DNA of 64,000 bases from a virus, in the IMG/VR virus record IMGVR_UViG_3300021424_000003, positions 1-64,000 of that record; one strand, 5' to 3'. Shown here piece after piece: positions 10,881 to 64,000 of this stretch. The notes under the pieces were generated by a model that made no database searches, was not told the DNA's origin, and was given only the letters and a program-made list of their open reading frames with translations. The stretch's first letter is position 1; each line of letters begins with the position of its first letter. Made by a program: the position numbers and the translations under genes.

Positions 10881-10993
10881 TGTACAGGATTTCGACAGAC
10901 CCAATTAGTGGTTCGCAATCCGTAGTGCTTGTTGAGGCAACGTGGTGGATTCCAATGGATGAAGCCAACTCCGACATTAGTTATAATGGATAA
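10880..10993 (+). pseudogene. Truncated chaperone remnant
   Basis: MYRISTDP...WWIPMDEANSD then ISYNG*; lacks the YQ..W.A.GNTPEPW tail found in the three intact paralogs. Confidence 0.6.
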
Positions 10994-10995
10994 AT

Positions 10996-34900: not shown

Positions 34901-36931
34901 ACCAGCGCCAGGGGTGACCCCCCTGGATGAAAGCCATGCGGCTGCTTGGTCTTTTTCCGGTCCAGGCGGGAGCAAGTCATATCTCCTTTGTATTGCTGCT
35001 ATTCTTGCTGGGCTAGCAGAAGACACGATTTTCGGCTGGGAGGTCGCAACAAGAGCGGAGCTTGTTGCAGTGCCTGTCATTGAACCAGGGCCAATCGCAC
35101 CCATAATTCTTGGACCCGGACCTATAGCCCCCATTGGTCTTGAACCTGGGCCCAACCCCGGATATATGGGCCCGGGTCCTATCGTTCCCCTTGGCTGCTG
35201 TCCGGGACCTATTGGGAGTGGACCGCGAGGTGGTGGGGTTCCTCCTGGTTGAGTAGGTATTGGTCTTCCACCAATATTTACGACCGGGGTATTGATGTTT
35301 ACAGTGTTCGGAGCCATGGCATTGTCTTTGCCCAGATATCCGCCTTTATGCCCCTTCATCTGGCGGAACATTATTGCTAGTGCCATCAGTCCAGCGCCAC
35401 CCTTGCCACCGAACATGTTCGTAAACATTCCAAATATGCTATTAAGCATCTTTACAACATCCGTGAGTCCCTTAACTAGGTCGTTTATAAATGGCAATGC
35501 GTCAAAGAATGCTTTTCTAAATGTTTTGGATATATCCATCACCGCATTAAGCAAATTTCCGATATTAGTACCAAGCTCCCCGAGGTCATCCTTGTATTTA
35601 ATTACCTGCTCATTGAATTGACCAAGGGCGTCTTTTATGCCTGCCTTAAGTTCTTTCCATATGTTGCCAAACATTCCCTCAATGGCCCTGGCGCCCTCGA
35701 TGTATGGCTTTAGGTTCTCTTTAGTTATTCTGAACCATCTACTTACTCTTTGCCACCAGTTCCCAATGTCTTTGAAAAATCCTTTTGTTTCGGGAAGCCA
35801 TTCACGTACAAGTTTTACAAAGAAATTAGACGTCTTCTCTATACCGCTGACAAGCGAGTCCATCATTGGTCCGCGACCGAATTCAGCAAGTGAGCCGGAT
35901 ACCCGAAGAAGGTCTTTCCTTATGATGCGATATATTTTCTCTATCGCTACCTTTGCTGGGCCGAGGAATTCCTGACCGAAATCTCCGAAATCTCCTCTAA
36001 GGAGAGTGAAATACTTTTTTATTGATGCAATAAGAGTTTGATTCACTGCTTCAAACTGACCGGCCACACCGCCCATTTTGGCTAGTTCGCCAGACATGAT
36101 TAGGGCTTTAAGTTCTTTCTTAGATGTAACTTTTGCCTTCTTGAGCGCAGCTTCCATTTCTGGGCCGAGTTCTTTAGCGGCAGCCTTAACATCAGTCATA
36201 CTCTTCTTTGAGTCATTTAGGGCGGCAATAACGGCACCGACCTGCTCAGCAGCCTGTGCTGGGTCCTTACCTGCTGCACCGAAATCCATAAGATTCTTTA
36301 GGAGCCCACTTGTCTTTGCTATCTGAGCAGAGTTCATTGACTTAGACATCGATGTATACGCTTTATTTATTGCTTCGACACCAAGGCCTGCCAGGTTTGC
36401 GTCCCTTTGCAAAGCTCGCATCGATGCTCTCGTTTGGTTGAGTCCTGCACCAAACGCAGGTGCGCCCTTGCCCTTGAAGGCATACATCGCTGCTTGCGAT
36501 TCACGTTGAGCAGCAGCAAAAGTTCCCAAAGCAACTGCGGCCGACGCCGCAGCACCAGCTATGGCAGTCATGCCAAATGCGTACGCTTTATGAAGATACT
36601 TTCCAGCAACAAATAGAGCGTGGATTCCGACTAGCGCAGCAGATAGTAGCGCCATCTGAATCAGGGTTCCCTTAATTGCCAGACCGAGAACCTTAGACAG
36701 GCCCATGCCCATCATCTTGATTCCTTTGTCCATTGAGTCGAAGACTTTTCTTGTCCTCGTAGCAGCAATCAGGAAGGTTGACATCTGTGTGCCAGCCACC
36801 TGAGCGCCAGAGGAAAGGCGCGACATCCTCCGCTCTAGGCCGGTTATGGCTTTATCGAGGGCTTTTACTTCGGCAGCGCCCTGTAACGCTCCCTTTACCT
36901 CAATATTAATTGTCGCTTCGGCCCTAGCCAT
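31964..36931 (-). CDS. Tape measure protein with glycine zippers and C-terminal M15-type Zn peptidase
   Basis: 1655 aa, Ala/Gly-rich helical; GAxxG zippers; SSYR...SDHVTGRAID...HLHV. Confidence 0.85.
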   Translation of the reverse strand: MARAEATINIEVKGALQGAAEVKALDKAITGLERRMSRLSSGAQVAGTQMSTFLIAATRTRKVFDSMDKGIKMMGMGLSKVLGLAIKGTLIQMALLSAALVGIHALFVAGKYLHKAYAFGMTAIAGAAASAAVALGTFAAAQRESQAAMYAFKGKGAPAFGAGLNQTRASMRALQRDANLAGLGVEAINKAYTSMSKSMNSAQIAKTSGLLKNLMDFGAAGKDPAQAAEQVGAVIAALNDSKKSMTDVKAAAKELGPEMEAALKKAKVTSKKELKALIMSGELAKMGGVAGQFEAVNQTLIASIKKYFTLLRGDFGDFGQEFLGPAKVAIEKIYRIIRKDLLRVSGSLAEFGRGPMMDSLVSGIEKTSNFFVKLVREWLPETKGFFKDIGNWWQRVSRWFRITKENLKPYIEGARAIEGMFGNIWKELKAGIKDALGQFNEQVIKYKDDLGELGTNIGNLLNAVMDISKTFRKAFFDALPFINDLVKGLTDVVKMLNSIFGMFTNMFGGKGGAGLMALAIMFRQMKGHKGGYLGKDNAMAPNTVNINTPVVNIGGRPIPTQPGGTPPPRGPLPIGPGQQPRGTIGPGPIYPGLGPGSRPMGAIGPGPRIMGAIGPGSMTGTATSSALVATSQPKIVSSASPARIAAIQRRYDLLPPGPEKDQAAAWLSSRGVTPGAGSGERLSSGARGPGNGYTAGTTPGAGGSPSGGTGGPGTAPPGAGGPGTTGATSRLNFLTRMYRAQYNPAFGLDGRENDLFRSKTTGRRYAFQEMTTVKDADGNDVRVPTGRILSTKTGQQIGTINEAGQVSTKGFSGRGEGVGTRMRMAGLANRSRRESALGSAILGNEKLGIGGINNSMSAKMGVGMGMSLASQFMPEEMQGAMALGGIVGQFNPLAGLAVGLGGAALNAQSAKAGALTGAGAGAAIGTMIAPGIGTAVGAALGTITGAIRGFTNGMAVRAKEAKAAMNGFLDNIMMSEFVAAGERIKRIEATVAAGGDISNMDAGLSGVAGNTADKLGRFQEKLQKGGFKGKYAGSTLEQAGRGFKGGAKIGGGLGTVAGGVLGSVGGPLGIAIGAGIGAAIGGTIGGLVGGIAGGVKGLFNRGGRKKQLEKDKAVFKDALKDPAFKDLFSEEELKKLDKDEASGFKELQKGLPDRIDAMKTIDEQTTVRMKRLQEASGKSGAEIEQLAKKLGIDLYDPMVDFTKLVTDLGFATRKTAIELKNMNIDSFADGLSAFDEAIKNIVDPQIYDEAGFALASAVDSGNDPIAVIEALKKFQESSLSMFDSPIDALYGQQDQLGTKDAPGAAFKPGGFMYGIDPKDFFTDRVTNALDASNRRTEQGFIGTASADISAQMAGLGFLSNDKEIGGLISGMSADNRRKFLTDYEAGKINFKNPLADKTEEEKKKLIKDSGFATESEFMSAQASKIFAQYGQNNKLSLSDMDEGANLVAEKMDTASETFKTAVDNFSKNMAIYFSSTNKPEWMTNKFIKLIAEKADTSTPRGSSVGDTTSSRLSQTMARHGAINAQLTGNRTITSSYRTGNLGSINSDHVTGRAIDLVGQNLGQYAVLTRQSGGFAEFHGTAGSRHLHVVPGPGAIGDAMTPSVNTMSSTAVAGTSSSGGNTYTFHINGGNSSPEEIANVVMQKIKRAESIARERS

Positions 36932-42340: not shown

Positions 42341-42898
42341 TTATCTGTCGCTATTTGGTGGAGACTCAATTGCTATTCCGGAATCATCAGTTGTTCCAGG
42401 GGGTGCTTCAACTGGAACCCAGGCACGAGCGTAAGCGTGCTCTTTAATATTTCTAGACTTCAGAAGAGAGTTGTTAATCATGAGCGCATATTCCTCCCTT
42501 TTCATGCACAAAACTCTCTCCAGACTTGCTGCATCTTCTGATTTTGACATCACCAATTTTCTAATAATCTTTGACATTGGCTTGGCAACCAATGCTCCCC
42601 GTGAGCGATTGAAGCGTAGATGCATCAGCATGGCATCCAGCGAAGATACGTCGTGCTCTACCACTGGAATTTCGTCCCCAACCACATTTGAAATTCTGCT
42701 TACTTGTGTGGCCAGTAGGAATCTTTCTGAACCGTCAATTATTTCTCCGGTGGATTTACGAACCTGTATTGGTTGAGTAAATCCATAATCCATTAGAGAC
42801 GCAGACAGGGCCAGAAGGTCGGGCCGAAGAATATAGGTCGCCCTCCATTCTGGGACCACTAAATGGGAAGAATTTTTATAGATTATTTCAAGCTTCAT
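42341..42898 (-). CDS. ParB/Srx-like protein (IbrB-like)
   Basis: SLMDYGFTQPI.V...EIIDGSER...H.RFNRSRG. Confidence 0.75.
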   Translation of the reverse strand: MKLEIIYKNSSHLVVPEWRATYILRPDLLALSASLMDYGFTQPIQVRKSTGEIIDGSERFLLATQVSRISNVVGDEIPVVEHDVSSLDAMLMHLRFNRSRGALVAKPMSKIIRKLVMSKSEDAASLERVLCMKREEYALMINNSLLKSRNIKEHAYARAWVPVEAPPGTTDDSGIAIESPPNSDR

Positions 42899-44027
42899 GA
42901 GTCGTATCTATTCCTGCTTCTGTGATTCTTATTGAATCGGCTTTTGTTTTGGGCCCCACTGGAGTTGGTGAGTTTACGTCAATATCATTGAGTGCTAAAT
43001 TTCTAATAAGCCAACTAACGGGGTACCCATATGGGTCCTGCAAGTGTTTTTTTCTGAATCTTGAAACATATGCTTTTGCGTCTCTCTGGCGCCTTTCACC
43101 CATTAGATAGTCGTTGATGAACATGAGAGCCCCATCCCATCCATATGAAGAATATCTTGCTATCAATTTCTCAATATCAAATTCCGGCCACCACCGGCGT
43201 TGAGCGTCTATCTGAGGGAAGCACTCAAACAACCGGTCATAGAATTCCGGCTCTGTCGCAACAACATCCCCTATTCGTCTAATTGCTACGGAGTGAAGGG
43301 GAATGCCAACCCTGGTGTTGCTGCCGGTAAGTGCTGCAAGGTCGTAATACTCACAAAACTCTGCTCCGTGTTCCTCTGTTATAAATTTGAATACATCATT
43401 CGTGTTCCAGTCATAAATTATCTTTGCAAACTTCAAAGGGATTCCCGCCTTGAGTTTGTATGGAGTAACTATGTAGTTCTCGTGAAGTTTCTGAACAATA
43501 GACCTATAGCGAACCATTGATTCACTAGCACGAACTCCAGTAATAAAAGCGACATTGCCCCTCTTCCCTTGCATGGTGTAGTAATCGGTTTGTTCGGGCA
43601 ATGAGACATCATGAGTCAGACCGAAGTGCTCCCCAGTGATTGCCCACGGTGGGATATCCCTCACCAAGCGACCAATCTTTTTTCTGGCGTTACTCCATAA
43701 AAGTGTTGTCACCCTAGAACCAAGAACCCATATTTCTGCCGGATACGGAAGGCAATACCATTCCATATCCACCCAGTCATATTGACGTACACGCTCTGTG
43801 TATTCAATAACGGTTGGACTTACCATCTCTTCATCTCTGAAAATAACTTTTACTGGCCCAAGACAACGCTCTTCATGAACTTCTTTGGCAAGGTAGAGAA
43901 CCGCAGTGCTGTCCTTGCCTCCGGAAAATTGAATACAGACGGTGTCGAAGGTGTCGTAAACGTGTCTAATTCTTTGTCTTGCAGCCTCGACGCATGACAT
44001 GTCTAAAAACATTCTCTGCCTAGTCAT
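42888..44027 (-). CDS. PAPS-reductase-family PP-loop protein (IbrA-like)
   Basis: EAARQRI..VYDTFD...FSGGKDS, FRDEE, W.CLP, GVRASES..R, IYDW...DV. Confidence 0.85.
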   Translation of the reverse strand: MTRQRMFLDMSCVEAARQRIRHVYDTFDTVCIQFSGGKDSTAVLYLAKEVHEERCLGPVKVIFRDEEMVSPTVIEYTERVRQYDWVDMEWYCLPYPAEIWVLGSRVTTLLWSNARKKIGRLVRDIPPWAITGEHFGLTHDVSLPEQTDYYTMQGKRGNVAFITGVRASESMVRYRSIVQKLHENYIVTPYKLKAGIPLKFAKIIYDWNTNDVFKFITEEHGAEFCEYYDLAALTGSNTRVGIPLHSVAIRRIGDVVATEPEFYDRLFECFPQIDAQRRWWPEFDIEKLIARYSSYGWDGALMFINDYLMGERRQRDAKAYVSRFRKKHLQDPYGYPVSWLIRNLALNDIDVNSPTPVGPKTKADSIRITEAGIDTTHEA

Positions 44028-50954: not shown

Positions 50955-53057
50955 ATGGCTTGGAATTCTCCGGTAAATAAATCCCTTTCCAATGAGAGTA
51001 ATAAAGAAATAGGCCCAGGAGCACCAGTAGCCAACAATCCCGGACTTGCGGGGAGGGCATATAGGGATTCCTGGGACATTGAAAGGGCATACCGAGAAGG
51101 GATGCAGAAAGTCACGTGGGTGGCTAGATGTATCGACGCAATTGCCGGGAACCAGGCAAGACTCCCAATAATCCTCAGAAAAGATAACTCTCCAGATGGC
51201 GAGATTCTTTCAAAAAGGGCTTCTCAAAACTCCGAGTTAATGGAGATTCTCAATACAAAATCGAACATCGGAGAAAACGCCTTCATCTTCAGATACAGAC
51301 TTTCGGCACAGATACTTCTTGGAACTCGCGGTGCATTTGTGGAGAAGGTGCGAGGAAGGGACGGCGGGATAGTTGGACTGAACCTTCTTCCCGCACAGTC
51401 AACGGCGCCAATACCAGATGCAAAAAAGTTTGTTTCTGGTTATGAGGTGACAATGCCGTATGGACAAAAAGTCATACTGAAAAAAGAGGACGTAACCTGG
51501 ATTAGAAGGCCTCATCCACTCGACCCATACCTGTCCTTAACTCCCCTTGAATCAGCTGGCGTTGCTATAGAGATAGAAAATCTAGCGAAGCTCTACAACA
51601 GAAACTATCTCCTGAACGACGGCAGACCTGGCGGGCTGCTTGTTCTCCGTGGGGAAATAGATGATGACGACAAAGAAGAGCTGCGCAGCAGATTCAGGGG
51701 GAACCTATCGCGTGTTGGATATACATCCGTTATCTCTTCTGATGATGGCGTTGATTATGTAGACACATCCGCAAATCCAAGAGACGCTGCCTACATACAG
51801 ATGAGGCAGTTAACTAAGGAGGAAATTCTTGCATCATTCGGAGTTCCAGAGTCTGTTATTGGAAACGCTTCCGGTAGAACGTTTAGCAATGCTTCGGAAG
51901 AGATTCGTGTCTTTTGGATGGAGACGATGCTTCCCCATTTGGAGATTCTTTCACGGGGTCTAGACGAACTAGACGATAAGAACTACGTCGATTTCGACAC
52001 AAGCGAAGTTCCAATCCTGATGCTCTACAAGCAGGAAAGACATCGCTATTTGATGGATGAATTCCAAAACGGCCTAATCAGCAACAACGAGTACAGAATT
52101 CTTTCCGGAAGAAAAGAAACAGAGTCAGACCTTGCTGATTCGCTATTGCTCAATCCAAACCTGATTCCGATTGCCAATACTAAGAAGAAAATGGAGGATA
52201 AAGCTTCCGCGACCGTCCCTGGTGCTCCAGGTATGCCGGGGATGCCTCCGGGTATGCCGGGGATGCCCCCAGGTATGCCGGGGATGCCTCCGGGTCCAGA
52301 GCAGATGGTGCCAGGTGCCGATGGCCAACCACTTGACCCAAATACTATGGCTGGGGCAATGGCGGAAGTTACGGCGCAGGGTGGCGGGGAGTTGGCACAA
52401 GCGCCGATACCGGGTCTACCCACTCCCCCGCAGCCAGAAGCAATGCCAGCAGGAATGTCAACGGGAATGGCACCAGTTCCATCGGGAGCAGCCTCAATCG
52501 ATAATGCGGATATTCAGACCAAATCAGAGCAAGAAGTTGAGGTGCAGAGATGGGAAGAGATTCTCTATCGGAGCATAGAGAGGGTTCTTGAAAGACAGCA
52601 GCGCGTTGTTCTCGAGAAGTCGAGCGGTGCAAAGGCCAAAAAAGCACTTGTGGCCGGAACTATCGATATTCCATCAATACTTCACTCCGAGACATGGGAT
52701 AGACAATTTGAGGACGACATCAAGCCGGTCATAACAGCAATAATCAAGGAATCTCAGGCAGCATCGGGTGTGAAGATTTCTAGGAAATCCTCCAAAAATC
52801 ATTTAATTGAATCTGATGTTTCTGTTCAGGTTGAGTCTCAGATGGAGAGAATCAAGTCGATTAACTCCGAAATGACATCAGAAATAACAAATATCATGCT
52901 TGCCTCTCTTTCAGTTATCGGTGAAGAGCAGAGAGTGAGCACATTTAGGTCGAATATCGTCTCGCTGTACACCAATTTGCTTGGGAAAAGACTCCCAGAG
53001 ATTGCCGAGGACGAAACTCGTAGGGCCTGGCTATTCGGCCAACACTTAACTAGATAA
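50955..53057 (+). CDS. HK97-family portal with Pro/Gly/Met linker and C-terminal MuF-like helical extension
   Basis: VARCIDAIA...LPI, NDGRPGGLL, EILASFGVP..VIG, ISNNEYR; C-terminal IAEDETRRA. Confidence 0.9.
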   Translation: MAWNSPVNKSLSNESNKEIGPGAPVANNPGLAGRAYRDSWDIERAYREGMQKVTWVARCIDAIAGNQARLPIILRKDNSPDGEILSKRASQNSELMEILNTKSNIGENAFIFRYRLSAQILLGTRGAFVEKVRGRDGGIVGLNLLPAQSTAPIPDAKKFVSGYEVTMPYGQKVILKKEDVTWIRRPHPLDPYLSLTPLESAGVAIEIENLAKLYNRNYLLNDGRPGGLLVLRGEIDDDDKEELRSRFRGNLSRVGYTSVISSDDGVDYVDTSANPRDAAYIQMRQLTKEEILASFGVPESVIGNASGRTFSNASEEIRVFWMETMLPHLEILSRGLDELDDKNYVDFDTSEVPILMLYKQERHRYLMDEFQNGLISNNEYRILSGRKETESDLADSLLLNPNLIPIANTKKKMEDKASATVPGAPGMPGMPPGMPGMPPGMPGMPPGPEQMVPGADGQPLDPNTMAGAMAEVTAQGGGELAQAPIPGLPTPPQPEAMPAGMSTGMAPVPSGAASIDNADIQTKSEQEVEVQRWEEILYRSIERVLERQQRVVLEKSSGAKAKKALVAGTIDIPSILHSETWDRQFEDDIKPVITAIIKESQAASGVKISRKSSKNHLIESDVSVQVESQMERIKSINSEMTSEITNIMLASLSVIGEEQRVSTFRSNIVSLYTNLLGKRLPEIAEDETRRAWLFGQHLTR
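52227..52295 (+). repeat. 3.3 x 21-bp tandem repeat (PGMPGMP)
   Basis: CC(A/G)GGTATGCCGGGGATGCC(T/C) repeated in frame. Confidence 0.9.
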
Positions 53058-53157: not shown

Positions 53158-53690
53158 ATGTCAAAATCCTTCGTGAATCCTGAAATTCAGTACAAAGCTG
53201 CCACTCAGGGTGCAATAAACCTAGACGAAGCCAGGGGCATAGTCGAGTGTTTCGTGGCAGGAATTGGCAACAAGGACTCCGTTGGCGATGTTTGCGCCCC
53301 TGGGGCATTCGCCAAAAGCCTATTGCGCCGGAAACCAAGAGTTGTGTGGGGCCATAACTGGAACGACCCAATCGGCAAGGTTCTAGAAATTTACGAAGTT
53401 CCAGCAAACGACCCAAGACTTCCGAGCAAGATGAGAGCAGCGGGTATTGGTGGGCTCTACGCAAAAGTTCAATTCAACCTAATGTCAGAAAAAGGCAAGG
53501 AAGCATTTGCGAGTGTTGCATTCTTTGGCGAAGAGCAGGAATGGTCAATTGGGTATAAGACAATCAACGCAAAATTTGACCAGCAGATGCAGGCGAATGT
53601 TCTATTTGAGGTAGAGCTTTACGAGGTGAGCCCTGTTCTTCACGGTGCAAATCAATTGACTGGAACAATATCTGTTAAGTCGGATGAAAA
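53158..53690 (+). other. Domain: HK97-type prohead serine protease
   Basis: GNKDSVGD...GAF..S, VWGHNW..PIG (His), WSIGY (Ser), LYEVSPV..GAN. Confidence 0.9.
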
Positions 53691-56600
53691 TAATGCCACC
53701 GCAGTGATGGAAAGGGCTGTTAGTTCCATCGCGAATGCCGATAGTGAAAATTCTCCGGAACTAAAAGAGGTTCTATACGCACTCAGAAATATTGCTTCCA
53801 TGATTTCCGATAACGAGAAGCATGAGTATGGAATGCCCTCAGTAATGCCTTCAGCAAATAGACAACCTATTCCATCAATGCCAAGCCCTGCTCCGTCCAC
53901 GGCGCCGAGGTCAGTAGTCAAGCCAACAAGACCATCTATCCCTGAAAACCCCATGGTAGTTGCTCTTCGCCGTGAGCTGGTCGCAAGAACTGGGTCGAAC
54001 ATAATTGTCCGCTCTGCTGGAGACAATGTTGTTGTATTTGACCGAATTATGAGCGACGGTTCGTCTTGCACGTACAGACTTGCGTATCACTATGCAGATG
54101 GTGAATTCATGTTTGGTAAGCCAGAGAAGGTCAACGCGCAGACCGTTTACACTCCCGAGACTCCTGGGGCACCAGGAGATGCATACTGGGGAGACGATTA
54201 CTCAGAAACACCAAAGTCATTGCAATCTGGTGATTTTTGGAGTGCCGGTTTTTATAGCGAGCTGACCTCGCAGCCAGACACAAGCAATGCCCTCATGGAG
54301 GTGATAGAGAGTCTTCAACATCTAATCAATGAAAAATCGGAATACGTAATACCAGTAGAGCCGGCAGAGGCTTTTGAGTTAAGGCAAATGATTGACCCAG
54401 TTCTCGAGTATTACAACGCTGACGCCAGAGTAACCGAGGAGGGGATTGTAGTTAAGTCAGCACACAATCCAGAGCTAATTGAAGCTCTTGATGTCGCGAC
54501 TAAGTCCGTGCTGGGAAAAATCCGAAGGGGCATTGGCGCTGGAAGGCGTCTTGATGCTCCAAACATTGGTGGCGGTAAAGGTCGTAGCAGAGCAGCGCGA
54601 GCAATTGGCGCAGCAACTGGCGGTGTAGCTGGAAATCTAGACCCTTCAAAAATATCTCTCAACGACCCGGACGGAGACGGGTGGGCCAGAGAGGGTTCAA
54701 GAAATCCTGTTTGGGTTGGGTTTAAAAAAGCAGTAGAAAAAATTGCGGGCAGCGTTGGCCGGAAGAAGAAGCCATCAAAAGACAAGCAAAGGGCCCGCTC
54801 TGCTGTTAATGCAGATAAACCCGGTCCGCCGAGAGTAAGGTCCGGAGCGCCGTGGGATGCTCCATTAACTCCTGCTCCGCCTCGTCCTAGCAGAGTGACG
54901 CTTACAGATGATGCTGGAGCAAGACTAAGAGAACTCGGCAAAGAAAGAGCCAGAGAGCTTGGCTTTGACAGAAACATTGACCCCGTCCTTCCAAGACCGC
55001 GCAAGAAACTTACAAACCAAGTATCCGCTGCCCCACGCCCTGGAGAGGGCAGAAGTAGGGCATCGGGCGAATCAATTGCGAATGCAATACGTCGCTCAAA
55101 GAGCGCACCAAACCCTGTCCTTGGCCAGGAAATGGCAAATGATGTAGCTAAGTTCGGCTACCCGGAAGAGATGTCAACGGATGACCTAGTGAGAACGGTC
55201 GGCAAATTTAGAGGAGAAATAGCCAAGGCTAGAGAGAATCTAGAAAAGATTCAGGCAGATAGAGACTCTGGCAAAAAAGTATCTTCTTCAGAAATCGGAA
55301 AAGCTAGACAAAGTGTCGACTCCCTCCGTCAGAGAGCGTCTGTTTACTCATCCGAAATATCAAAGCGCGACAAAATAAAAGGTTCCGACAGATTCTCTTC
55401 AGGAAAAGCCATTACCCCAGAAGACAGACGCAAAAGAAGACATGCTCCGCTGGGTACAACTGGAGAATTTGACCTTCCAGACGAAGTTGCCACAAGAAAT
55501 AAGCACGAAGAGTTTGTAGCAGAATTTAGAAAAAACAACGGATTTTGGCTGGATATCCCAAGAGAGGGAACCGTCGCTTCAATGAATACGTCGGAGGAGT
55601 GGCAGAGGGCTAGAGAAATAGCAACAAACGTCGGGATTCTTGAGTGGCAGGAAAATGAAAGAAATAGAAGGCCGAAGGGTTTTAGCGAAAAAGCGCGTTC
55701 GTCCATGGACTACCTAACATGGTTCGGTGGATATACAAAGCGCCTTGGTGACTATCTCGATAGGGAAGAGTCCAGTGAAAATGTAACCGATGACGAACTT
55801 GCTGGTGCAAGGGCGGCAGTACTAGATGCATTGGCATTCAGAATGGCAACGCCAACTGGTCCAGAAAGCCAAAATACGCTTGCGGCAATGCTCGCAGACG
55901 CCGGATTCGGTCCAAATGGAAAACACGAAAAAGCATTCGGTGGGCGCAAGAAATCCAGCGTTGTTGGATTCTCTTCTGGTCGCGGAAACAGAGTAGACAC
56001 TCGAGTGCTAGACCAACTTATGAACGATGGTAAAGAGGTCAGCGACGATGACGTGAAGGCAATACTTATGCCTAACGCCGGCATATTGATGCATCCAGAA
56101 TATAACGACAGAACCGGCGAGGTATCTCTTGGCTGGAAGAACGTCCTAGAATCCTCATTAGAGGACAGGAGTTTCAATAGGGGTTCCCAGAGGGCGATGA
56201 TTCGCCTTGACGATGAGGGTTATCAAAAATTTACAGAGGCACTAGAAGCAGCAAATGGAGAGCTGACCCCATCGGACGGCCTGCCATCTAGCTCAAGAAG
56301 CGTAAGGGACAGGGAATACCCATATTCATGGGGCAAGTCTCGAATGGGGGCTTTTTCATCTGGGCGCAAGTATCCACCAGAAATAGAAGACGAGCTTGTA
56401 TTCGATTCCGAACTGGGCGGCAATAGAGCAGCAGACAGAATCAATACCGAAAATGTCGACATGGAGATAGTTCCATCTTCCGATATTGGCCTTGATGGTC
56501 CAGATGATGGAGCATGGACTGTTGTCGGCATGTACAGGGGAGAAGACTATGGCTCCGTCGACTACATCTATGAACTAGATACTTTTGATTCGGTAGAAGA

Positions 56601-59600
56601 AGCAAGACGCTTCATAGAGACATTTGACAGATTGATAGATGAGGAAATTAGACCTGGCGACCCAGATTTCTTCCTCGATATAGATAACTACAACAAAGAC
56701 AACAAAATATCCCTGGATGATGACCTTGACTCCGCTATATCTAAGGCTGTTCAGTCAAGAAAAGATAGAGAGAACGACCCATACGACTATGGCAGTCTCC
56801 TGTCATCAGTTCTTTCCGACAGGTCATTAAACCTTTTTGGTGATGGAGAATCAAGATTCTCTTCCGGAAGAAACAAAGCAGAAAGACGCCAATCTGTCAA
56901 GAGAGTCATGGCAGAAGATATGGCCGATAGAGAGGTCAATCTAGGAATACTTTCTCGCCGCATGAAGGGTGAAACCCTGGACGAAGTAGGTAGAGCATAC
57001 GGAATAGACAGGGGAACAGTCCGCCAAATGGAGATGCGCGAGATGAAGCGTCTCAGGGATGGAGCAACACCAAGCGAAATACTTGCCTACAGAATGACAG
57101 GCCTCACACTCGACGATATGGGCAGAATGCTCGGCATGTCCCGTGAAGAGGTTAGAAGAATCGAGTCTAGAGAAATAGCACGGATGAGACTCGGCGGTCG
57201 CGACGGAAGCGACGCGATATTCGAGGGTCGTAAAGCTGGTCTAAGCCGCAATTCAATCAAAAAGCTAACTGGCATGTCTATGGATGACATAGCGACTAAG
57301 GAAAGAAAAGGATTTGAGAGGGCCGTAACACGAGAAGATGTCTCTCATCAGATATTTGACAAATACGTAACTAGATTCGGCGAAGACGAACTAACTGATG
57401 CGGAACTTGCGGAGGAGCTAGGGGTTAGCGAAAGAATTGTTTCCGAAGTTCGCGCGGGGGCAAAGAAAGACATACTCGATGCCCGTCGTGGCATGGACGA
57501 ACACTACAGCAGCCTTCCGGAGCCAACCGACGAAGAGCTTCAGGAGATGGCAGACTACTATGCAAATGATTTTGCTAGAGAGCAGGGTTTTGGCTCCTAT
57601 GCGGAGTATAAGGATTATGTTTCCAGTGTCGGCAGGGAAGACGATGGAGAGAGGCTGTCTTCTGGAGCAGGTAAGCGCGACCTTACATTTAGTCAAAAAG
57701 TTGGTCAAAGAGTATTTGAGGAAGCAGAAAAGATAGCCAAAGAAGACAATAGGGACATTTTCGACACCCTGGATTCGCTCGTCTTTGATAAGCGCATGGA
57801 TTCAACGAATCGTAGAAAAGATTTCGATGTAGCAGAGATGTATTCTCACATTAATTCCCTTCTTTTCCCAGAGGGTGCTAGAGAAAGCAGGAAGCGCAGA
57901 CTCTGGAGAAGAGAAAGACTCTCCTCTGGCAGAACCGGTAGAGGTCGGAAGAATCGGCGACAGGGCAAATCAAATCAGGGAGCATGGTCAGAAGAGGACC
58001 TTCAGAGATTCCGCGATAGAAATGTTCTACGCGCCAAAACTCGTCCCGGAAAGCGCAAGGATGGCCCATCAGCGGAAGAATTCTCTTCTGGACGCAAGAG
58101 AATAGATACGGCCGGTAGTTCAGCGCTGACTGGAGCATTCTACGATGCCGACAACAAAAGGCTTGTTGTCGGATTCAACAAGGGTGGGGTATATGCCTAT
58201 GACGGCGTAACCCCAGAAGACATAGAAGAGATGCACAATGCCGAAAGCAAAGGTGCAGCTATGGCTTCTATCAAGAAGAAGTACAAAGGCGTAAGACTTT
58301 CAGAAGCGGACGACAGCTTTAAGGCCACCAAACAGGGTGACGAATGGGTTGTAAATCCAGATAACGAAACGACTTACTCAATATCCGAAGACGGTGGAGA
58401 GTTCTTTGTTCTGAGAACTTCTGGAAGCTACGCACGCGATGGCGGCCAGTCTGGAGATGAGTACTACCATCCAGAGTCGTTTAAGAATATGGACTCCGCG
58501 ATGAAGTGGGTCGAGCAGGACTTCCTGCCATCAATAACTCCAGAACCGTGGGACGAAGATGACTACGATGTAGACAGGCTTTCATCTGGTGGGCCAGCTC
58601 GCGCCGCAGCCCAGATGCAATTTGATACTCGTAGAAGTAGAAAAGCGACAGAAATGACATACGACCCGCAAGACGGTCGTGTTGGAATAACTTATAACGA
58701 TGGAAAGCAGAGATTCTTCTCCGAGGTGCCTTACGAGGTTGCTAGGGCGGCAGGCAATCCATCAAAAGATATAGACAACTTCATTGATGACCTAGAGCGC
58801 GGGAAAGTGGGCAAGGAGGGCGGAAGATTTAGTTCCGGTGCAAGCTCGGTGCCTCGCACTGACTTTGATTACTCCTATCAGAAGTTCCCACCGACAGAAG
58901 AGCAGGCAGTCATTGCGGATGCGGTGGCGACTGGCGAGAACGTAATTGTAAGAGCATTCGCCGGCACTGGCAAAACTTCTACTCTTGTAATGATTGCTGA
59001 GAGACTGAAGCGTCAGGACCCAAAGAAGAAAATCGTCTACATGGCGTTCAACAAGGACATCCAGCTTGAGGCTGAGGGAAAGTTCCCTGGTAATACAGAG
59101 TCACGAACAGGCGACTCCATATCGTGGAACTGGGTCAAGCAGACAATGGGCGAAGCCTTCACGGACAGAATGAAGGGCAACCCACCAGAAAGAGTGAAGT
59201 CAAAGGGAACAAGAAACAAGGATATATCTATTCATTTCAAGATTAAACAAATGGAGCATCCGGACGGGCTAAAAGATGAGAAAACCGGAAACCCCATAGT
59301 CCTTGATGCTGTTGATGTTACAAAGCTTGTAAGAGAAGCGGTTAAAGAATTCCTTATTTCGGAAGACGATGAGATAGGCACACAGCACTTTAAGAAAATA
59401 CAGAATGTTCCACCAGCTCTTTTGGGACATGCCAAAGCTATATGGGATGACATGAACGACCCTGATGGCGTGATGAAATTGGATAACTCCGTATTCACCA
59501 AGATGTGGGCACTATCTAGGCCTCAGCTCAGTGACGGTGTCGGTCTATTCAAAGGAAAGCCATCAGTAATATTCTTTGACGAAGCTCAGGACATAAACCC

Positions 59601-62600
59601 AGTAATGGCAAAAGTCATGCGGGAACAGAACATCCAAGTTATATTTGTTGGAGATAGTTACCAGGCTATTTACGGATTCCGTGGAGCATCGGACAGTCTC
59701 GAGAAAGCGGAAGCCACATATGACTTGCCTCTCACTGGGTCATGGAGATTCGACAGCAAGATAGCTGGATACGCAAACAGATTCCTAGCGTACATGGGTT
59801 CAAAAGATAGAATTCGTGGCGTAGGAAAGCCGGGTGATGGTGTTGTTGAACCAGAGTCGATGGTTGACCCAGATGCAATTCTGACAAGAAGTAACGGTGG
59901 GGCGCTACGTGCAGTTGTTGAGCAAATAAAAAACGGAAGAATCGTAGGGACTTCGGAAAACTTCAAGAAAGACCTAACGAAATTCGCATGGCACGCAATA
60001 AGTCTCAAGGCCGATAAGCCAGTAAAAAATCCACATCCAGAACTAGAGGAATTCTCTTCATGGCAGGAGGTTACAGATGCAGCCAACGCCGAGGATGCAA
60101 GCCCTCGACTAAGAATGCTTGTACAGCTATTCAATGACACACCAAACATTATCGAGATACTGGACCAAGTCGTTGTCGGTGGCAAGCTCAGGGGGGAATC
60201 TGGTGGAGGCTCCGGCAAGAGGATTCTTCCTAGCGAAGTAACAGATGGCTTTGAGATGTCCATAGACCCAAGCAGTCTGGGTAAATGGGCAGGAGACAAA
60301 AAGACATCCGTTTTGTACAAAAATGGAAAACTGTTCTTTCAGTTGCCATACACAGCAAAAGGCTCATCTGGTGATGACAGCAAAAAGAGCTGGATTAAAG
60401 AAAACTTAGGAAAAATCAATCGCTTTGAGTATGGCAAGCCAGAAGAGACTGGCGGCAAGTTTGCAGTATTCGTAGACGCAACACCAGAACAGGCTGCAAA
60501 ACTTCTCTCCGGAATAACATCGGGTGATGCTCAGGAAGTAGACGTCATGGTAATGACGGCACACAGGTCAAAGGGTCTTGAGTTCGGAAAAGTTCAGCTT
60601 TACGGAGACTTCCCAAGACCAAGAAAGAACAAGAATACCGGTGAGATGGAGTACCCAGCTCCGGAAGAGCAAAGACTTCAGTACGTTGCATCAACTAGGG
60701 CCATACGCGAACTAGACCCAGGCCCAACTTCATGGATATATAACGAAACATCTGAAGATGACGAAAGCCCAGGCGTACCTAGTGGTTTCTCGTCTGGCGC
60801 AAAAGGTAACCCAATGCCGAGCGCCATTGGTAAGGACATGGTTCTAGAAGACGGCGGCACATACGAAGACAACATGTTTAGGGGCACGTACGTTGCCGAC
60901 TTTAATGGCGGGAAGATGGTAATCCAGCCGGCAGGCAGGGATTCGTGGGCTGTTTACAGGGCAGACTTTATGGGCGGCGAAGATGGGCCTTCTTACAACT
61001 TCAGCTATGGTCCACCAACGGACGAGTCTGAGTTCAGTTCACTCGCAGACGCATACGAGCATGTTCTCAATTATGTAAAAGACAACGACATAACGCTTGA
61101 CCAGATGGATGGAAGTCGCCGCTCAAAGGGGAGTGAGTCCTTCTCGGTGGCAAAAATCGGAAACTCCGGTTCTGGAATATCTGAAAGATTTAGCTCAGGT
61201 CGCAAGAATGCCGATAAAAGATTAAAGGCAGCTAGAAAATTTTCAAGGGGGGGAGATGCCGATGATGATGGTCGTCTGTCTTCTGGAAAGAGAGATTCTG
61301 ACGAAGGGTTCGCATCGGGCCGAATACTGTCTCGACTTCGCGGCCGAGAAGAAACCACTCAGAAAGAAGCAGATGAACTCTATAAATGGGCGGCGGAAGC
61401 AAGCAAGAAGCGTCCCGACGACGAATACTTGAGTCGCGTTGTTGGTAAGGGCTCAGAATACGGAGAAGGTCTAGACGAAAAAGACTTCGAATACATACGC
61501 CAACAACAGCTCATTGATTTTATAGTCGATAACGACCTGCACCTACGCGACCCGGAAGGAGCTGGTCGAATATTAGATATATGGACCGGTGAAAGCCGGG
61601 GAAGAATTAAAGATAAAGACTGGGAGGCCCTGTCGGAACTCCGATACCGGCGCCAACAGAGAGAGGACGACGCATTTAATCGTGAAGCATTAAAGGACGT
61701 TGCCGAATCGCAAGGCATGCCACGTGACGACCAGCAAAAACTTGCCATTTTTGCGTGGGCGGCTTCTCGATTTGGGAAATATCCACTGGTAGAAGACGTC
61801 GTGAGAGGTGGGAGAACAAACATCCCAAACAGCCTCGACGACAGAGAATGGAAATTTCTTAAAACCGAATGGCTCAACAGCGACGCTCCAGACCCACAAC
61901 CACTCAACACTAGAATGACCAATGGTGACATGGGCCCAGATAGGTATCTAGAACAAGACTATCTAGCGTACATGCGCGAGAGCGGTATGACCGGCTTGCT
62001 GGAAAAGTACCAGACGCGAGGTGGACTGACCGGCAAAGATTGGGCTTATGTAAAGAAGTTACACGACGACCTTGGCCCAAGGGGATGGCGAAATCCAAAG
62101 AGTGCCTCATACAGGGGAATAACTAGAAAAGAAAGAAGGGAAATTGACAAAAAAACTGGACGCCTGAGTGATTGGGATGTTCTGACCGAGGCACAAAGAG
62201 CTTCACTAGAGAAGCGCAAGGAAAAATTCAACCTTACAGAATCAATGGCCAACGCGCTTTCTTCAGGCCGTACCACCCCGAATAAGCCCAAACAGGATGA
62301 TGGTCGTTTGTCTTCTGGCGGTGACCCTACTCCTGAACAGATTGAAGCGGAAGACAGAGAAAATAGGGCTGACTTCTACAAGAACAGCTCTGGTCTTTAT
62401 GAAAATGAACTTGCCGAATGGCTGGATGCAAATCCAAGCAAGACAGAAAAAGACTATGAGTCAAGCCCTGAATTTGCAGAGAGACTTGACGATATGGACA
62501 GCATCATGGGCGATTTCGCCGATGCTGAGGCAGAACGTCGTCTAGATGATTATGCAAATCGCATGTCGTCCGGGGGAAAGCCACCCCGTTATCCACGACC

Positions 62601-64000
62601 CCCCACGCTCGGAGCGTTTCTCGGTTCTACGGATGACTTATTCAAAAATGTAGATTCATGGGAAGATTTCAGGAATATATACAACGACCAAGAAATCATA
62701 TTTTTTGATTACGAAACTACCGGTTTAGTATTTGATGAATTCGGCAGAGCGACTAGCAACGGAGCACCAGTTCAGTTTGGTGCAGTAAAAATTAAAAACG
62801 GCAAAGAAATAGGCCGAATAAACCTATTCATGAACCCCGGCGAGTCGCTCGGAGAATGGTCGCGAAACAATCTCAAAGACATAGACGGAAATCCACTAAC
62901 AGATGACTGGCTTGGTGGACAGATTTCCGTTGAAGATGCTCACAAACAGCTAATCGAGTTCGCTGGGGCTGATGCAATATTCGGAGTTCAAAATGCAACG
63001 TTTGATAAAGCTGTTTTGGACGATGTGTTATCAAAAATGAAATCGGACTGGAGGCCGTCAGGCTACATAGATACACGAGAGCTCGCAAGCCTTGTGCTCC
63101 CCAGATGGACACCAGAAACAGAAGATGGGCCATTTCAGACAAACAAAGATGGTGAAAAGGTCCCTTCCTCAAGTCTTGCCGCAATTACTGAATATCTTGA
63201 CGTTGAGCTTGGAGATGGCCACCACAACGCAGATGTTGATGCTTTCGCAGCAAGCGAAGTAATGAGAAAAATGATTGATGGGGCAATCGAAAATGATTGG
63301 TCGCGAGATGCCCTATCAAAAGAAAAACGTGATTCTCGTCATGCGGAAACGATTGCAAAATTTGAAGAGAGCGTTCGGCAATTTGAGTCAGAATTAAGCC
63401 AGTATGGTCTATCTTCTGGGCGCCGCCAGCGGCCATCTGATGAGGAGATTTATAACCTCAGAATGTCTGGCCCAACCCTAGAGGAAGTCGGGGAGAAGTA
63501 TGGAATGACGCGCCAAGAAGTGCGCGCTGCAGAAATGCGCCATATCAGGAAAATGCGTGATGCCGACTTTGAGGCAACTGGGGCACAGACATCTAGAAGA
63601 GAGCGTCGTCTATCTTCTGGAGGGAGACCCACACGCGCCGGTTCAGCAAAACAAAGAGGGAAAGTAGTCCTCACAAGCCAAGAACCAGGCGGTAAGTGGA
63701 CTGACGTACCAGAAAACCAACTAAGTCGAAAAGACGATTTCTTTGACAATGAAACAGCTTCAAGAATATTGGATAACCCACTAGAGAATTACAACGACCA
63801 AACCGGCTGGCCAGTAGCTGCTAGGGATTTCTTCCAAAGCCTAGTTTTGCAGCAAGAAGGAAGAGACATTCCTGTAATGGATGAAGATGGAAGGTTCACG
63901 CCTGAAGGACGCAACCAAGTCAAGAAGATGCTTTTCGGCTCTAATGAAGCAAGGGAAAAATTCCTAGACCAAATAGAGTCAGGCGATGTATCTCATATGC
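53158..64000 (+). CDS. Giant prohead-protease-led polyprotein (at least 3614 aa; runs off the window; absent from ORF track)
   Basis: ATG 53158 after AAGGAG; codon-by-codon translation found no stop up to 64000. Confidence 0.9.
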   Translation, partial: MSKSFVNPEIQYKAATQGAINLDEARGIVECFVAGIGNKDSVGDVCAPGAFAKSLLRRKPRVVWGHNWNDPIGKVLEIYEVPANDPRLPSKMRAAGIGGLYAKVQFNLMSEKGKEAFASVAFFGEEQEWSIGYKTINAKFDQQMQANVLFEVELYEVSPVLHGANQLTGTISVKSDENNATAVMERAVSSIANADSENSPELKEVLYALRNIASMISDNEKHEYGMPSVMPSANRQPIPSMPSPAPSTAPRSVVKPTRPSIPENPMVVALRRELVARTGSNIIVRSAGDNVVVFDRIMSDGSSCTYRLAYHYADGEFMFGKPEKVNAQTVYTPETPGAPGDAYWGDDYSETPKSLQSGDFWSAGFYSELTSQPDTSNALMEVIESLQHLINEKSEYVIPVEPAEAFELRQMIDPVLEYYNADARVTEEGIVVKSAHNPELIEALDVATKSVLGKIRRGIGAGRRLDAPNIGGGKGRSRAARAIGAATGGVAGNLDPSKISLNDPDGDGWAREGSRNPVWVGFKKAVEKIAGSVGRKKKPSKDKQRARSAVNADKPGPPRVRSGAPWDAPLTPAPPRPSRVTLTDDAGARLRELGKERARELGFDRNIDPVLPRPRKKLTNQVSAAPRPGEGRSRASGESIANAIRRSKSAPNPVLGQEMANDVAKFGYPEEMSTDDLVRTVGKFRGEIAKARENLEKIQADRDSGKKVSSSEIGKARQSVDSLRQRASVYSSEISKRDKIKGSDRFSSGKAITPEDRRKRRHAPLGTTGEFDLPDEVATRNKHEEFVAEFRKNNGFWLDIPREGTVASMNTSEEWQRAREIATNVGILEWQENERNRRPKGFSEKARSSMDYLTWFGGYTKRLGDYLDREESSENVTDDELAGARAAVLDALAFRMATPTGPESQNTLAAMLADAGFGPNGKHEKAFGGRKKSSVVGFSSGRGNRVDTRVLDQLMNDGKEVSDDDVKAILMPNAGILMHPEYNDRTGEVSLGWKNVLESSLEDRSFNRGSQRAMIRLDDEGYQKFTEALEAANGELTPSDGLPSSSRSVRDREYPYSWGKSRMGAFSSGRKYPPEIEDELVFDSELGGNRAADRINTENVDMEIVPSSDIGLDGPDDGAWTVVGMYRGEDYGSVDYIYELDTFDSVEEARRFIETFDRLIDEEIRPGDPDFFLDIDNYNKDNKISLDDDLDSAISKAVQSRKDRENDPYDYGSLLSSVLSDRSLNLFGDGESRFSSGRNKAERRQSVKRVMAEDMADREVNLGILSRRMKGETLDEVGRAYGIDRGTVRQMEMREMKRLRDGATPSEILAYRMTGLTLDDMGRMLGMSREEVRRIESREIARMRLGGRDGSDAIFEGRKAGLSRNSIKKLTGMSMDDIATKERKGFERAVTREDVSHQIFDKYVTRFGEDELTDAELAEELGVSERIVSEVRAGAKKDILDARRGMDEHYSSLPEPTDEELQEMADYYANDFAREQGFGSYAEYKDYVSSVGREDDGERLSSGAGKRDLTFSQKVGQRVFEEAEKIAKEDNRDIFDTLDSLVFDKRMDSTNRRKDFDVAEMYSHINSLLFPEGARESRKRRLWRRERLSSGRTGRGRKNRRQGKSNQGAWSEEDLQRFRDRNVLRAKTRPGKRKDGPSAEEFSSGRKRIDTAGSSALTGAFYDADNKRLVVGFNKGGVYAYDGVTPEDIEEMHNAESKGAAMASIKKKYKGVRLSEADDSFKATKQGDEWVVNPDNETTYSISEDGGEFFVLRTSGSYARDGGQSGDEYYHPESFKNMDSAMKWVEQDFLPSITPEPWDEDDYDVDRLSSGGPARAAAQMQFDTRRSRKATEMTYDPQDGRVGITYNDGKQRFFSEVPYEVARAAGNPSKDIDNFIDDLERGKVGKEGGRFSSGASSVPRTDFDYSYQKFPPTEEQAVIADAVATGENVIVRAFAGTGKTSTLVMIAERLKRQDPKKKIVYMAFNKDIQLEAEGKFPGNTESRTGDSISWNWVKQTMGEAFTDRMKGNPPERVKSKGTRNKDISIHFKIKQMEHPDGLKDEKTGNPIVLDAVDVTKLVREAVKEFLISEDDEIGTQHFKKIQNVPPALLGHAKAIWDDMNDPDGVMKLDNSVFTKMWALSRPQLSDGVGLFKGKPSVIFFDEAQDINPVMAKVMREQNIQVIFVGDSYQAIYGFRGASDSLEKAEATYDLPLTGSWRFDSKIAGYANRFLAYMGSKDRIRGVGKPGDGVVEPESMVDPDAILTRSNGGALRAVVEQIKNGRIVGTSENFKKDLTKFAWHAISLKADKPVKNPHPELEEFSSWQEVTDAANAEDASPRLRMLVQLFNDTPNIIEILDQVVVGGKLRGESGGGSGKRILPSEVTDGFEMSIDPSSLGKWAGDKKTSVLYKNGKLFFQLPYTAKGSSGDDSKKSWIKENLGKINRFEYGKPEETGGKFAVFVDATPEQAAKLLSGITSGDAQEVDVMVMTAHRSKGLEFGKVQLYGDFPRPRKNKNTGEMEYPAPEEQRLQYVASTRAIRELDPGPTSWIYNETSEDDESPGVPSGFSSGAKGNPMPSAIGKDMVLEDGGTYEDNMFRGTYVADFNGGKMVIQPAGRDSWAVYRADFMGGEDGPSYNFSYGPPTDESEFSSLADAYEHVLNYVKDNDITLDQMDGSRRSKGSESFSVAKIGNSGSGISERFSSGRKNADKRLKAARKFSRGGDADDDGRLSSGKRDSDEGFASGRILSRLRGREETTQKEADELYKWAAEASKKRPDDEYLSRVVGKGSEYGEGLDEKDFEYIRQQQLIDFIVDNDLHLRDPEGAGRILDIWTGESRGRIKDKDWEALSELRYRRQQREDDAFNREALKDVAESQGMPRDDQQKLAIFAWAASRFGKYPLVEDVVRGGRTNIPNSLDDREWKFLKTEWLNSDAPDPQPLNTRMTNGDMGPDRYLEQDYLAYMRESGMTGLLEKYQTRGGLTGKDWAYVKKLHDDLGPRGWRNPKSASYRGITRKERREIDKKTGRLSDWDVLTEAQRASLEKRKEKFNLTESMANALSSGRTTPNKPKQDDGRLSSGGDPTPEQIEAEDRENRADFYKNSSGLYENELAEWLDANPSKTEKDYESSPEFAERLDDMDSIMGDFADAEAERRLDDYANRMSSGGKPPRYPRPPTLGAFLGSTDDLFKNVDSWEDFRNIYNDQEIIFFDYETTGLVFDEFGRATSNGAPVQFGAVKIKNGKEIGRINLFMNPGESLGEWSRNNLKDIDGNPLTDDWLGGQISVEDAHKQLIEFAGADAIFGVQNATFDKAVLDDVLSKMKSDWRPSGYIDTRELASLVLPRWTPETEDGPFQTNKDGEKVPSSSLAAITEYLDVELGDGHHNADVDAFAASEVMRKMIDGAIENDWSRDALSKEKRDSRHAETIAKFEESVRQFESELSQYGLSSGRRQRPSDEEIYNLRMSGPTLEEVGEKYGMTRQEVRAAEMRHIRKMRDADFEATGAQTSRRERRLSSGGRPTRAGSAKQRGKVVLTSQEPGGKWTDVPENQLSRKDDFFDNETASRILDNPLENYNDQTGWPVAARDFFQSLVLQQEGRDIPVMDEDGRFTPEGRNQVKKMLFGSNEAREKFLDQIESGDVSHM
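56870..57480 (+). other. Domain: 3-4 tandem sigma70-region-4-like HTHs
   Basis: TLDEVGRAYGIDRGTVRQMEMREMKRLR; TLDDMGRMLGMSREEVRRIESREIARMR; TDAELAEELGVSERIV. Confidence 0.75.
58093..58290 (+). other. Domain: KTSC (copy 1)
   Basis: SSALTGAFYDADNKRLVVGFNKGGVYAYDGV.......NAESKG. Confidence 0.8.
58591..58824 (+). other. Domain: divergent KTSC-like (copy 2)
   Basis: MTYDPQDGRVGITYNDGKQRFFSEVPYEV. Confidence 0.55.
58840..60783 (+). other. Domain: UvrD/Rep-like SF1 helicase
   Basis: PTEEQ, AFAGTGKTS, YMAFNK, DEAQD, VGDSYQAIYGFRGA, LTGSWRF, TAHRSKGLEF, EEQRLQYVASTRA. Confidence 0.92.
62575..63405 (+). other. Domain: DEDDh (DnaQ-like) 3'-5' exonuclease
   Basis: FFDYETTG (ExoI), QNATFD (ExoII), HNADVD (ExoIII). 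Confidence 0.88.
63421..63606 (+). other. Domain: single sigma70-region-4-like HTH
   Basis: IYNLRMSGPTLEEVGEKYGMTRQEVRAAEMRHIRKMR. Confidence 0.75.

Follow-up and report, generated by a model that had tools for sequence, protein, structure and literature searches.

The first 64 kb of the virus record IMGVR_UViG_3300021424_000003 (119,344 bp, estimated to be 79% complete; these 64,000 nucleotides are hereafter called the window) contain the beginning of a giant open reading frame (ORF) that is punctuated by a short recurrent peptide. The ORF starts at 53158 on the plus strand, occupies 53158–64000 of the window and continues to a stop codon at genome position 67368, encoding a chain of 4736 aa. 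The peptide, x-[FLM]-S-S-G, occurs 20 times in this chain (17 copies within the window and 3 beyond it), and these tags divide the chain, a polyvalent protein as judged by its domain content, into 21 modules of 17 to 748 aa. We propose, with a probability of roughly 0.45, that the tags are putative cleavage sites of a sequence-specific protease encoded by the phage, most likely the Peptidase_S78 prohead protease (S78) fused to the N-terminus of the same chain.

The tags had been noticed in an earlier examination of the window that used the letters alone (the sequence-only reading), which counted 17 copies between domains and inferred a protease recognition motif or, alternatively, a capsid-docking or export signal. 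All 17 copies were found again, and all lie on the plus strand in the frame of the one ORF: RFSSG at 55390–55404 (the first joint), 56854–56868, 58825–58839 and 61186–61200; RLSSG at 57652–57666, 57916–57930, 58576–58590, 61273–61287, 62305–62319 and 63607–63621 (the last within the window); RMSSG at 62560–62574; GFSSG at 55966–55980 and 60784–60798; GLSSG at 63406–63420; AFSSG at 56350–56364; ALSSG at 62254–62268; and EFSSG at 58078–58092. The GFASG variant that it reported at 61306–61320 is likewise present and resembles the GFAS tag of related phages described below. The three copies beyond the window start at genome positions 65329, 66088 and 66223 on the same strand.

The 20 copies of [FLM]SSG compare with 0.335 expected from the composition of the chain, and 2000 residue shuffles gave a mean of 0.33 and a maximum of 3, which bears out the suspected enrichment. 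With a preceding Arg, the motif occurs 14 times (0.026 expected), and F, L or M precedes 20 of the 22 SSG tripeptides of the chain. The underlying codons vary: serine is encoded by TCT, TCA, TCC, TCG, AGT and AGC, glycine by all four of its codons, and the hydrophobic position by eight. Because the codons differ between copies and both serine codon families are used, the conservation is at the peptide level, as had been claimed. Of the charged surroundings originally described, the basic residues downstream are evident (R/K at 60% of +1 and 40% of +2 positions, versus a background of 14%), whereas the acidic bias upstream is mild (D/E at 30% of −2 and −4 positions, versus 17%).

Outside the giant ORF, the Arg-preceded tag is confined to two other large ORFs of the virion modules. 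A search of 51,095 aa of other ORFs (at least 100 aa, stop to stop) returned ten copies of [FLM]SSG. The five with Arg all belong to a 2213-aa head-module ORF (three copies) or to the tape measure protein (two copies); of the remaining five, two lack Arg and are at chance level, and three are in antisense shadow frames of the giant ORF. The tape measure protein (1655 aa; 31964–36931, minus strand) carries RLSSG near its N-terminus (aa 38–42; 36806–36820, minus strand) and in a Gly/Pro-rich stretch (aa 681–685; 34877–34891, minus strand). When this protein is aligned with its counterpart in a related phage (G003), the latter tag and a GMRS tag lie no more than three columns apart.

To place the tags in an evolutionary context, we used the N-terminal 470 aa as a query and found 536 relatives in IMG/VR; the analysis covered 80 of these loci and 16 whole records. 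The related records all derive from metagenomes, and the majority of them are incomplete. Several lines of evidence place the tags at joints between independent units. None of the 20 tags falls inside a Pfam envelope, with envelopes covering 27% of the chain (chance 0.0017). When the chain was compared with the ORFs of the 80 related loci and two whole relatives, the ends of homology blocks lay at a median of 14 aa from the nearest tag, versus 67 aa for random positions, and 54% of them lay within 20 aa of a tag, versus 19%. One relative, 80% identical (L008), is collinear with the chain but for two module-sized gaps (aa 2710–3036 and 3139–3420 of the present chain), both of which have tags as borders.

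The exonuclease module provides a closer view of such joints. A query of aa 3040–3500 against 1.84 billion representative proteins gave 299 matches at E ≤ 0.001, mostly proteins of 1000–7000 aa in which the position of the module varied; the module was also found in much shorter proteins (276–408 aa). Among the 150 matches listed, the matched stretch mostly ran from about 95–104 to 377–388 of the query, that is, from tag to tag. An AlphaFold model of the same segment, built from a 27-row alignment, had a mean pLDDT of 85.7 and a confident, compact DnaQ-like exonuclease core, which Foldseek matched to the Pol III epsilon subunit (E 1e-6, TM 0.80). The four tags of this segment are located at helix ends between units, in 10-residue blocks with mean pLDDT values of 39/54, 50/52, 84/72 and 53/45. 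Three of the four are clearly in low-confidence stretches, but the tag at aa 3417 showed only a moderate dip. Among the matches listed, 39 of 149 proteins with the exonuclease module have an adjoining x-SSG tag, 30 of them on both sides, and further flanks include [ST]-G-x-M-[SAT], G-x-R-S, GLAS, GSKS and other conserved peptides. In G003, a segment of a different giant ORF is 55% identical to the module and is flanked by GMRS. Unrelated giant proteins among the matches listed carry [LIV]-[ST]-G-x-M-[SAT] on both sides of the cassette; A-A-A-W-N-C-G-G was seen downstream of it in 19 proteins and Q-S-A-T-M-D-A-S-G upstream of it in 9. These other conserved flanks may be further junction codes, the Asn-Cys junction possibly being something else.

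The tag changes with the lineage. Relatives that are at least 59% identical have 9–18 copies of [FLM]SSG where the record covers enough of the ORF. More distant relatives have other recurrent peptides, namely G-L-A-S, G-L-R-S, G-F-A-S, G-M-R-S-R or S-R-S, and one relative has L-R-S-S-G in its second ORF; many relatives with short S78 proteins have no significant tag. In the whole record G001, GL[AR]S occurs in six large ORFs (10, 2, 2, 3, 9 and 3 copies), the last of which encodes the tape measure protein, and in G003, G[MLF]RS is found 5, 17, 5 and 23 times in four giant ORFs and once in the tape measure protein. Six of these phages have capsid proteins that are 74–86% identical, and one Ser is retained in every tag class (SSG, GLAS, GLRS, GFAS, GMRS and SRS). 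A tag that each genome keeps strictly, that close relatives do not share and that is altered in all tagged proteins at once points to a phage-encoded, sequence-specific reader, and a protease would most plausibly, and most simply, be that reader. Homologs do carry motifs at these boundaries, in the form of other short peptides at the same joints. Taken together, the location at joints, the dips in pLDDT, the borders of homology blocks and indels, and the other tags of relatives are best fitted by the original inference of a protease motif, which they support in part. An A-N-L-x-x stretch in two relatives (L087 and L046), first taken for a tag, is a pentapeptide-repeat domain; these S78 polyproteins contain a pentapeptide-repeat module, with 16 copies of A-N-L-x-x at about aa 935–1125 in L087.

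The candidate reader lies at the N-terminus of the chain. The first module (aa 1–748; 53158–55401, plus strand) is free of tags and comprises the protease, two small folded domains and disordered basic stretches. Its S78 domain (aa 28–172; 53239–53673, plus strand) matched Pfam profile PF04586 with 35.2 bits (cut-off 21) and the PHROG of head maturation proteases phrog_3244. The candidate catalytic residues H66, S130 and H162 do not vary among the aligned relatives (47 of 47), the catalytic ones among them being assumed from the family. Foldseek matched a model of the domain (pLDDT only about 70–83) best to herpesvirus proteases, weakly (E 0.015–0.3), and comparison with T4 gp21 (5jbl) gave Z 6.5 and rmsd 4.0 over 117 aligned residues; a profile of the N-terminal module found no sequence relative in the PDB. 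In all five records inspected for peptidases, S78 is present in one copy, always in this fusion and adjoining the portal gene, and no match to ClpP, Trypsin_2 (trypsin-like) or S8 (subtilase) was found in any of the five; an SprT-like match, in G003, was below threshold. Since S78 is the sole copy, is N-terminal and is not accompanied by a ClpP-type protease, the chain begins with the only candidate capsid-maturation protease of the phage. In G001, the six tag-bearing ORFs (29 tags) all lie within the record, and S78 is the only peptidase that Pfam recognizes in the five that were checked. The other peptidase-like domain of the present chain, the MPTase-PolyVal zincin near its C-terminus, was found in 8 of 16 records and follows the tag class: it is present in six of the seven SSG-class records (the seventh SSG polyprotein being cut by the contig end), in one GMRS-class and in one SRS-class record, and in none of the seven records of the GLAS, GLRS, GFAS, GFxS and LRSSG classes, including G001 (88% complete) and G004 (79%). 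Because the zincin forms a complete ArdC-like unit with the adjacent ArdcN domain, it is explicable as cargo. Its distribution, this unit and the peptidase content of G001 favour S78 as the reader.

In the mechanism that we envisage, the polyprotein would enter the prohead by way of its first module, the only capsid-maturation protease, as the gene order and the single S78 suggest. S78, once concentrated there, would cut R-[FLM]-S-S-G. The cut would probably follow the second Ser, which is conserved; this register would place a hydrophobic residue at P3 and a small one at P1, in keeping with the P3-x-P1 motifs that other prohead proteases recognize. About 20 proteins would be freed, including the helicase, the exonuclease, DNA binders of the helix-turn-helix (HTH)/sigma-like type, KTSC modules, the ArdC-type anti-restriction unit and proteins of unknown function, and, following the concept of polyvalent proteins, these would be ejected with the DNA as a toolkit for early infection. 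The second giant head-module protein and the tape measure protein would likewise be substrates of S78, acting in trans.

Several observations weigh against S78 as the reader. Its catalytic domain is 77% identical across SSG, GLAS and GMRS phages (the capsid protein, 74%), and its conserved motifs are invariant in all tag classes as well as in relatives without detectable tags; such conservation is hard to reconcile with such different specificities over 4–5 residues. The capsid protein, which has a delta-like N-terminal region, contains no [FLM][SA]S-type tag, and none of its sites co-varies with the tag class in the six aligned phages; in T4 and SPN3US, by contrast, the accessible parts of the sources have capsid and cargo sharing one motif (PMC12991175; PMC10052503). 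The tape measure protein lies outside the capsid. This objection is softened by T4 gp21: according to the accessible text of a 2026 preprint (PMC12991175), this protease also cleaves a host protein of the cytosol in the course of infection, so that action outside the capsid is possible. The relatives were collected via the S78 module, and the ubiquity of S78 among them is therefore given by construction; in addition, the absences of the zincin come from incomplete records (25–88% complete). Class-specific residues beside the Ser motif of S78 were considered as determinants of specificity and rejected: they pair inconsistently with the tag, and the GLRS and LRSSG phages break the pattern. A complex prediction of S78 (aa 1–200) with a 60-aa linker bearing three tags scored 0.00 without controls, which gives no verdict, and it was used neither way.

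The conserved S78 and the tag-free capsid protein point instead to a separate, faster-evolving reader, and the tags of the tape measure protein would suit an enzyme that is not restricted to the capsid. Such an enzyme might be the C-terminal zincin or a protease that has escaped recognition in one of the functionally unassigned modules, and it might act either ahead of packaging or once ejection into the cell has taken place; the zincin would cut between R and [FLM] of R-[FLM]-S-S-G. Zincins generally prefer a hydrophobic P1' residue. The zincin of the SSG phage is 57% identical to that of the GMRS phage G003 and is thus more diverged than S78, it is present in most SSG-class records as well as in one GMRS-class and one SRS-class record, and processing of polyvalent proteins by MPTase zincins has been proposed (Iyer et al. 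2017, PMC5512222, in the part of the article available). We nevertheless regard this alternative as rather unlikely, given that the zincin is missing from every record of five tag classes, that Pfam sees S78 alone among peptidases in the G001 ORFs checked, that the zincin can be explained as cargo, and that the searches for other protease families returned nothing above threshold.

The tags may also go uncut and serve as short linear motifs for capsid loading, for unfolding and threading through the tail, or for modification of serine. Cargo polyproteins and the tape measure protein should all exit the virion by way of the tail, the Ser kept in all tag classes could be a modification site, and the cargo-loading peptides of encapsulins are short motifs of Gly, Ser, Leu and basic residues. 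However, docking signals repeated at each joint would serve no evident purpose where the first module already tethers the chain, the tape measure protein neither forms part of the capsid nor is loaded into capsids, and the capsid protein retains about 75% identity between phages whose tags differ completely. These points weaken the capsid-docking alternative of the sequence-only reading, whereas an export or ejection signal stays within what the data permit. The tags moreover border indels and exchanged modules, which fits sites that are kept functional between independently folding products, and we consider uncut motifs improbable. It is more doubtful still that a host protease is exploited. 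In the staphylococcal phage 80alpha, the host protease Prp acts on capsid and scaffold proteins, and the GFAS tags of some relatives resemble the Prp site, but phages with 74–86% identical capsid proteins have unrelated tags that change in step throughout each genome, and conserved housekeeping proteases of related hosts are not expected to differ so much. Least credible is the view that the tags have no reader and are remnants of linkers spread by duplication or cassette recombination. Modules are clearly exchanged and indels stop at tags, as this view would have it; yet the codons differ between copies, down to TCN versus AGY serine, five positions are kept in 20 copies where 0.33 are expected, and relatives have different, equally strict tags at the same joints. 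Cleavage by a phage protease, with S78 as the most likely enzyme, is the reading that we retain for the comparisons below.

Polyvalent proteins were described as a class of phages and conjugative elements for which delivery with the DNA and processing by zincins were proposed (Iyer, Burroughs, Anand, de Souza and Aravind 2017; PMC5512222, available text). The present chain resembles them in combining S78, Sigma70_r4, KTSC, UvrD helicase, RNase_T, ArdcN and MPTase-PolyVal, with MPTase-PolyVal, ArdC-N and KTSC as hallmark domains, and in its context of virion genes. It differs in two respects, as far as the main text of that article goes. The assemblin-like peptidases of the class are there always C-terminal, whereas the protease is here N-terminal and is the only prohead protease of the phage, and a strict, lineage-specific tag marks every joint here and also occurs in the tape measure protein, whereas the word "linker" appears 0 times in that main text. 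The last module shares the full ArdC architecture, ArdcN followed by a zincin domain, but closes a polyprotein as its final cassette, whereas ArdC is encoded by plasmids and transferred by conjugation. Titles and abstracts among the matches listed contained no description of SSG-type junction tags, the supplements, possibly with tables of cleavage sites, lying outside this search.

Prohead proteases of the assemblin fold offer a second comparison. In the accessible text of the respective sources, T4 gp21 recognizes I/L-x-E (PMC12991175), and SPN3US gp245 recognizes A-x-E with Ser preferred at P1' (PMC10052503). These enzymes, together with the A-x-E protease gp175 of phiKZ, would share with the proposed system a possible assemblin-like fold, a short motif, here possibly of the P3-x-P1 type, and head cargo as substrate. 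Their substrates, among them the ejection proteins of SPN3US and phiKZ, come from individual genes, and a propeptide is removed from each, unlike the approximately 20 products expected here from a protease-fused chain. Herpesvirus assemblin, to which the fold match is weak, would agree in having a hydrophobic P3 and a small P1, as in [FLM]-S-S and L-A-S; the SRS tag class, which has no hydrophobic residue, does not agree. The maturation and release sites of assemblin are (V/L/I)-x-A-S, cut between A and S. In T4, the internal proteins and Alt are head cargo cut by gp21. In its overall working, the arrangement would come closest to the polyproteins of RNA viruses, which bring a protease of their own. 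As in the 3C/NIa-type systems of positive-strand RNA viruses, there is one ORF, expected here to yield many mature proteins, an internal protease and short, virus-specific junction peptides that vary between relatives, and the chain shows the features of a viral polyprotein, namely independent units with a recurring junction peptide that is specific to the virus and changes with it. The differences are that the virus is here a tailed phage with double-stranded DNA, that the products are probably virion cargo and not proteins of replication, and that the tag also occurs on other virion proteins.

We suggest, tentatively, that a family of uncultured tailed phages may use an RNA-virus-like polyprotein strategy, in which exchangeable cassettes are separated by a junction code of 4–5 residues that is rewritten genome-wide in each lineage. 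The cassettes would, on the same tentative footing, be lined up downstream of the capsid protease as well as within other giant proteins of the head module, and the code would extend to the tape measure protein. If this is true, one rapidly retuning protease specificity sets everything that the virion cuts and injects, and a cassette that moves between phages needs re-tagging to work. If the tags are cut, the chain is a catalogue of about 20 proteins that the phage delivers as infection begins, among them the helicase, the exonuclease, DNA-binding proteins, the anti-restriction unit and several modules without an assigned function, and the tag system connects the processing of the tape measure protein with that of head cargo, a connection that to our knowledge is undescribed. 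The tags also supply exact boundaries for expressing and testing single modules, the lineage-specific codes a natural set of orthogonal pairs of protease and site, and the tag system as a whole a route, from sequence only, to virion-delivered effectors in metagenomes.

The domain assignments of the giant ORF agree between Pfam and PHROGs. The two small domains that follow S78 (aa 262–325 and 377–459) are the fastest-diverging parts (27–37% identity) and gave weak, common-arrangement matches of the cystatin/NTF2-like and KH/ferredoxin-like types (Z ~6.5). For aa 262–325 (53941–54132), the matches were cystatin-, NTF2- and VirB8-like, with 61–71 residues aligned at Z ~6.5, in the common-arrangement range, and several of the proteins matched with these weak scores are protease inhibitors. 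Module 5 contains Sigma70_r4/HTH repeats (56956–57171, plus strand), and module 8 a KTSC domain (58117–58266, plus strand; Pfam, 45.6 bits). Module 10 (58837–60795, plus strand) is a UvrD-type superfamily 1 helicase according to Pfam and PHROGs; its 653 aa contain no tag, as the sequence-only reading had noted. The other lengths given there for tag-bracketed units were also correct, and two of its labels were less secure: the 83-aa "KTSC copy 2" reached only 13 bits against a cut-off of 25 (E 0.089), and the 67-aa "lone HTH", module 17 (63418–63618, plus strand), is a single Sigma70_r4-like HTH with 22.5 bits, just below the cut-off of 24.1. Module 16 (62572–63417, plus strand), of 282 aa, is a DnaQ/RNase T-type exonuclease (Pfam RNase_T), a cassette with counterparts in giant proteins of phages by the hundred. 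The last module (aa 4360–4736) consists of ArdcN (aa 4365–4481, 84.6 bits) and MPTase-PolyVal (aa 4509–4635, 150.9 bits) and matched phrog_7245 with E 1e-79 over profile positions 6–307 of 324; by these profile matches, it is a complete ArdC-like anti-restriction unit. The scores of ArdcN, MPTase-PolyVal and KTSC (module 8) all exceed the curated cut-offs.

The portal protein gene (50955–53057, plus strand) lies directly upstream of the giant ORF and thus places the polyprotein in the head module. On this side, the order is large terminase and portal upstream, followed downstream of the polyprotein by a 525-aa ORF and the 2213-aa ORF; the major capsid protein gene is located further downstream (genome 81440–82771), and the tail sheath and tape measure genes are on the strand opposite to the polyprotein. 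The second giant head-module ORF (2213 aa; genome 68993–75634, L005:1994–8632), with its three tags, has an N-terminal module of roughly 290 aa, which is kept across the family at 27–47% identity and contains a strongly conserved R-C-P-P-G-x-P-A-A-N-Q-F-T-D-x-x-G-S-N-C-F stretch. This module has no relative in Pfam or, by profile, in the PDB, and a protease in it was considered and rejected, as there is no invariant set of His, Ser and Cys. The first tag of the second giant ORF comes immediately after this N-terminal module in phages of the GLAS and GFAS classes. The 525-aa ORF (genome 67456–69033, L005:457–2031), flanked by the polyprotein on one side and the second giant ORF on the other, has counterparts in 33 ORFs of a local database of the relatives' ORFs, with its C-terminal 300 aa about 60% identical. 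Neither this ORF nor a 382-aa head-module ORF had a sequence match in Pfam, PHROGs or the PDB, and an Atlas search with the 382-aa ORF found nothing. The nearest Atlas clusters of the 525-aa ORF are viral, and PepSY, a peptidase-inhibitor domain, occurs in 14–17% of the cluster members; the ORF is a weak lead to a regulator of the protease.

Among cultured phages, the best S78 matches are actinophage proteases of at most 43% identity. Gordonia phage DalanDe gp27 (L006; 1633 aa) was considered as a cultured model and rejected, as it has no recurrent junction peptide; gene 27 of this phage has S78 near the C-terminus and long acidic low-complexity stretches, a different way of extending a prohead protease. 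Elsewhere in the window, two ORFs are of the auxiliary type: a tryptophan-halogenase-like ORF at 17999–19462 (plus strand; phrog_2928, E 1e-99) and a PAPS-reductase-like ORF at 42888–44027 (minus strand; phrog_2302, E 6e-73). A series of paralogous tail-fibre-like ORFs occupies 1417–12105 (plus strand), three of them matching phrog_4492, and is preceded by a head-decoration-like or fibre-like ORF.

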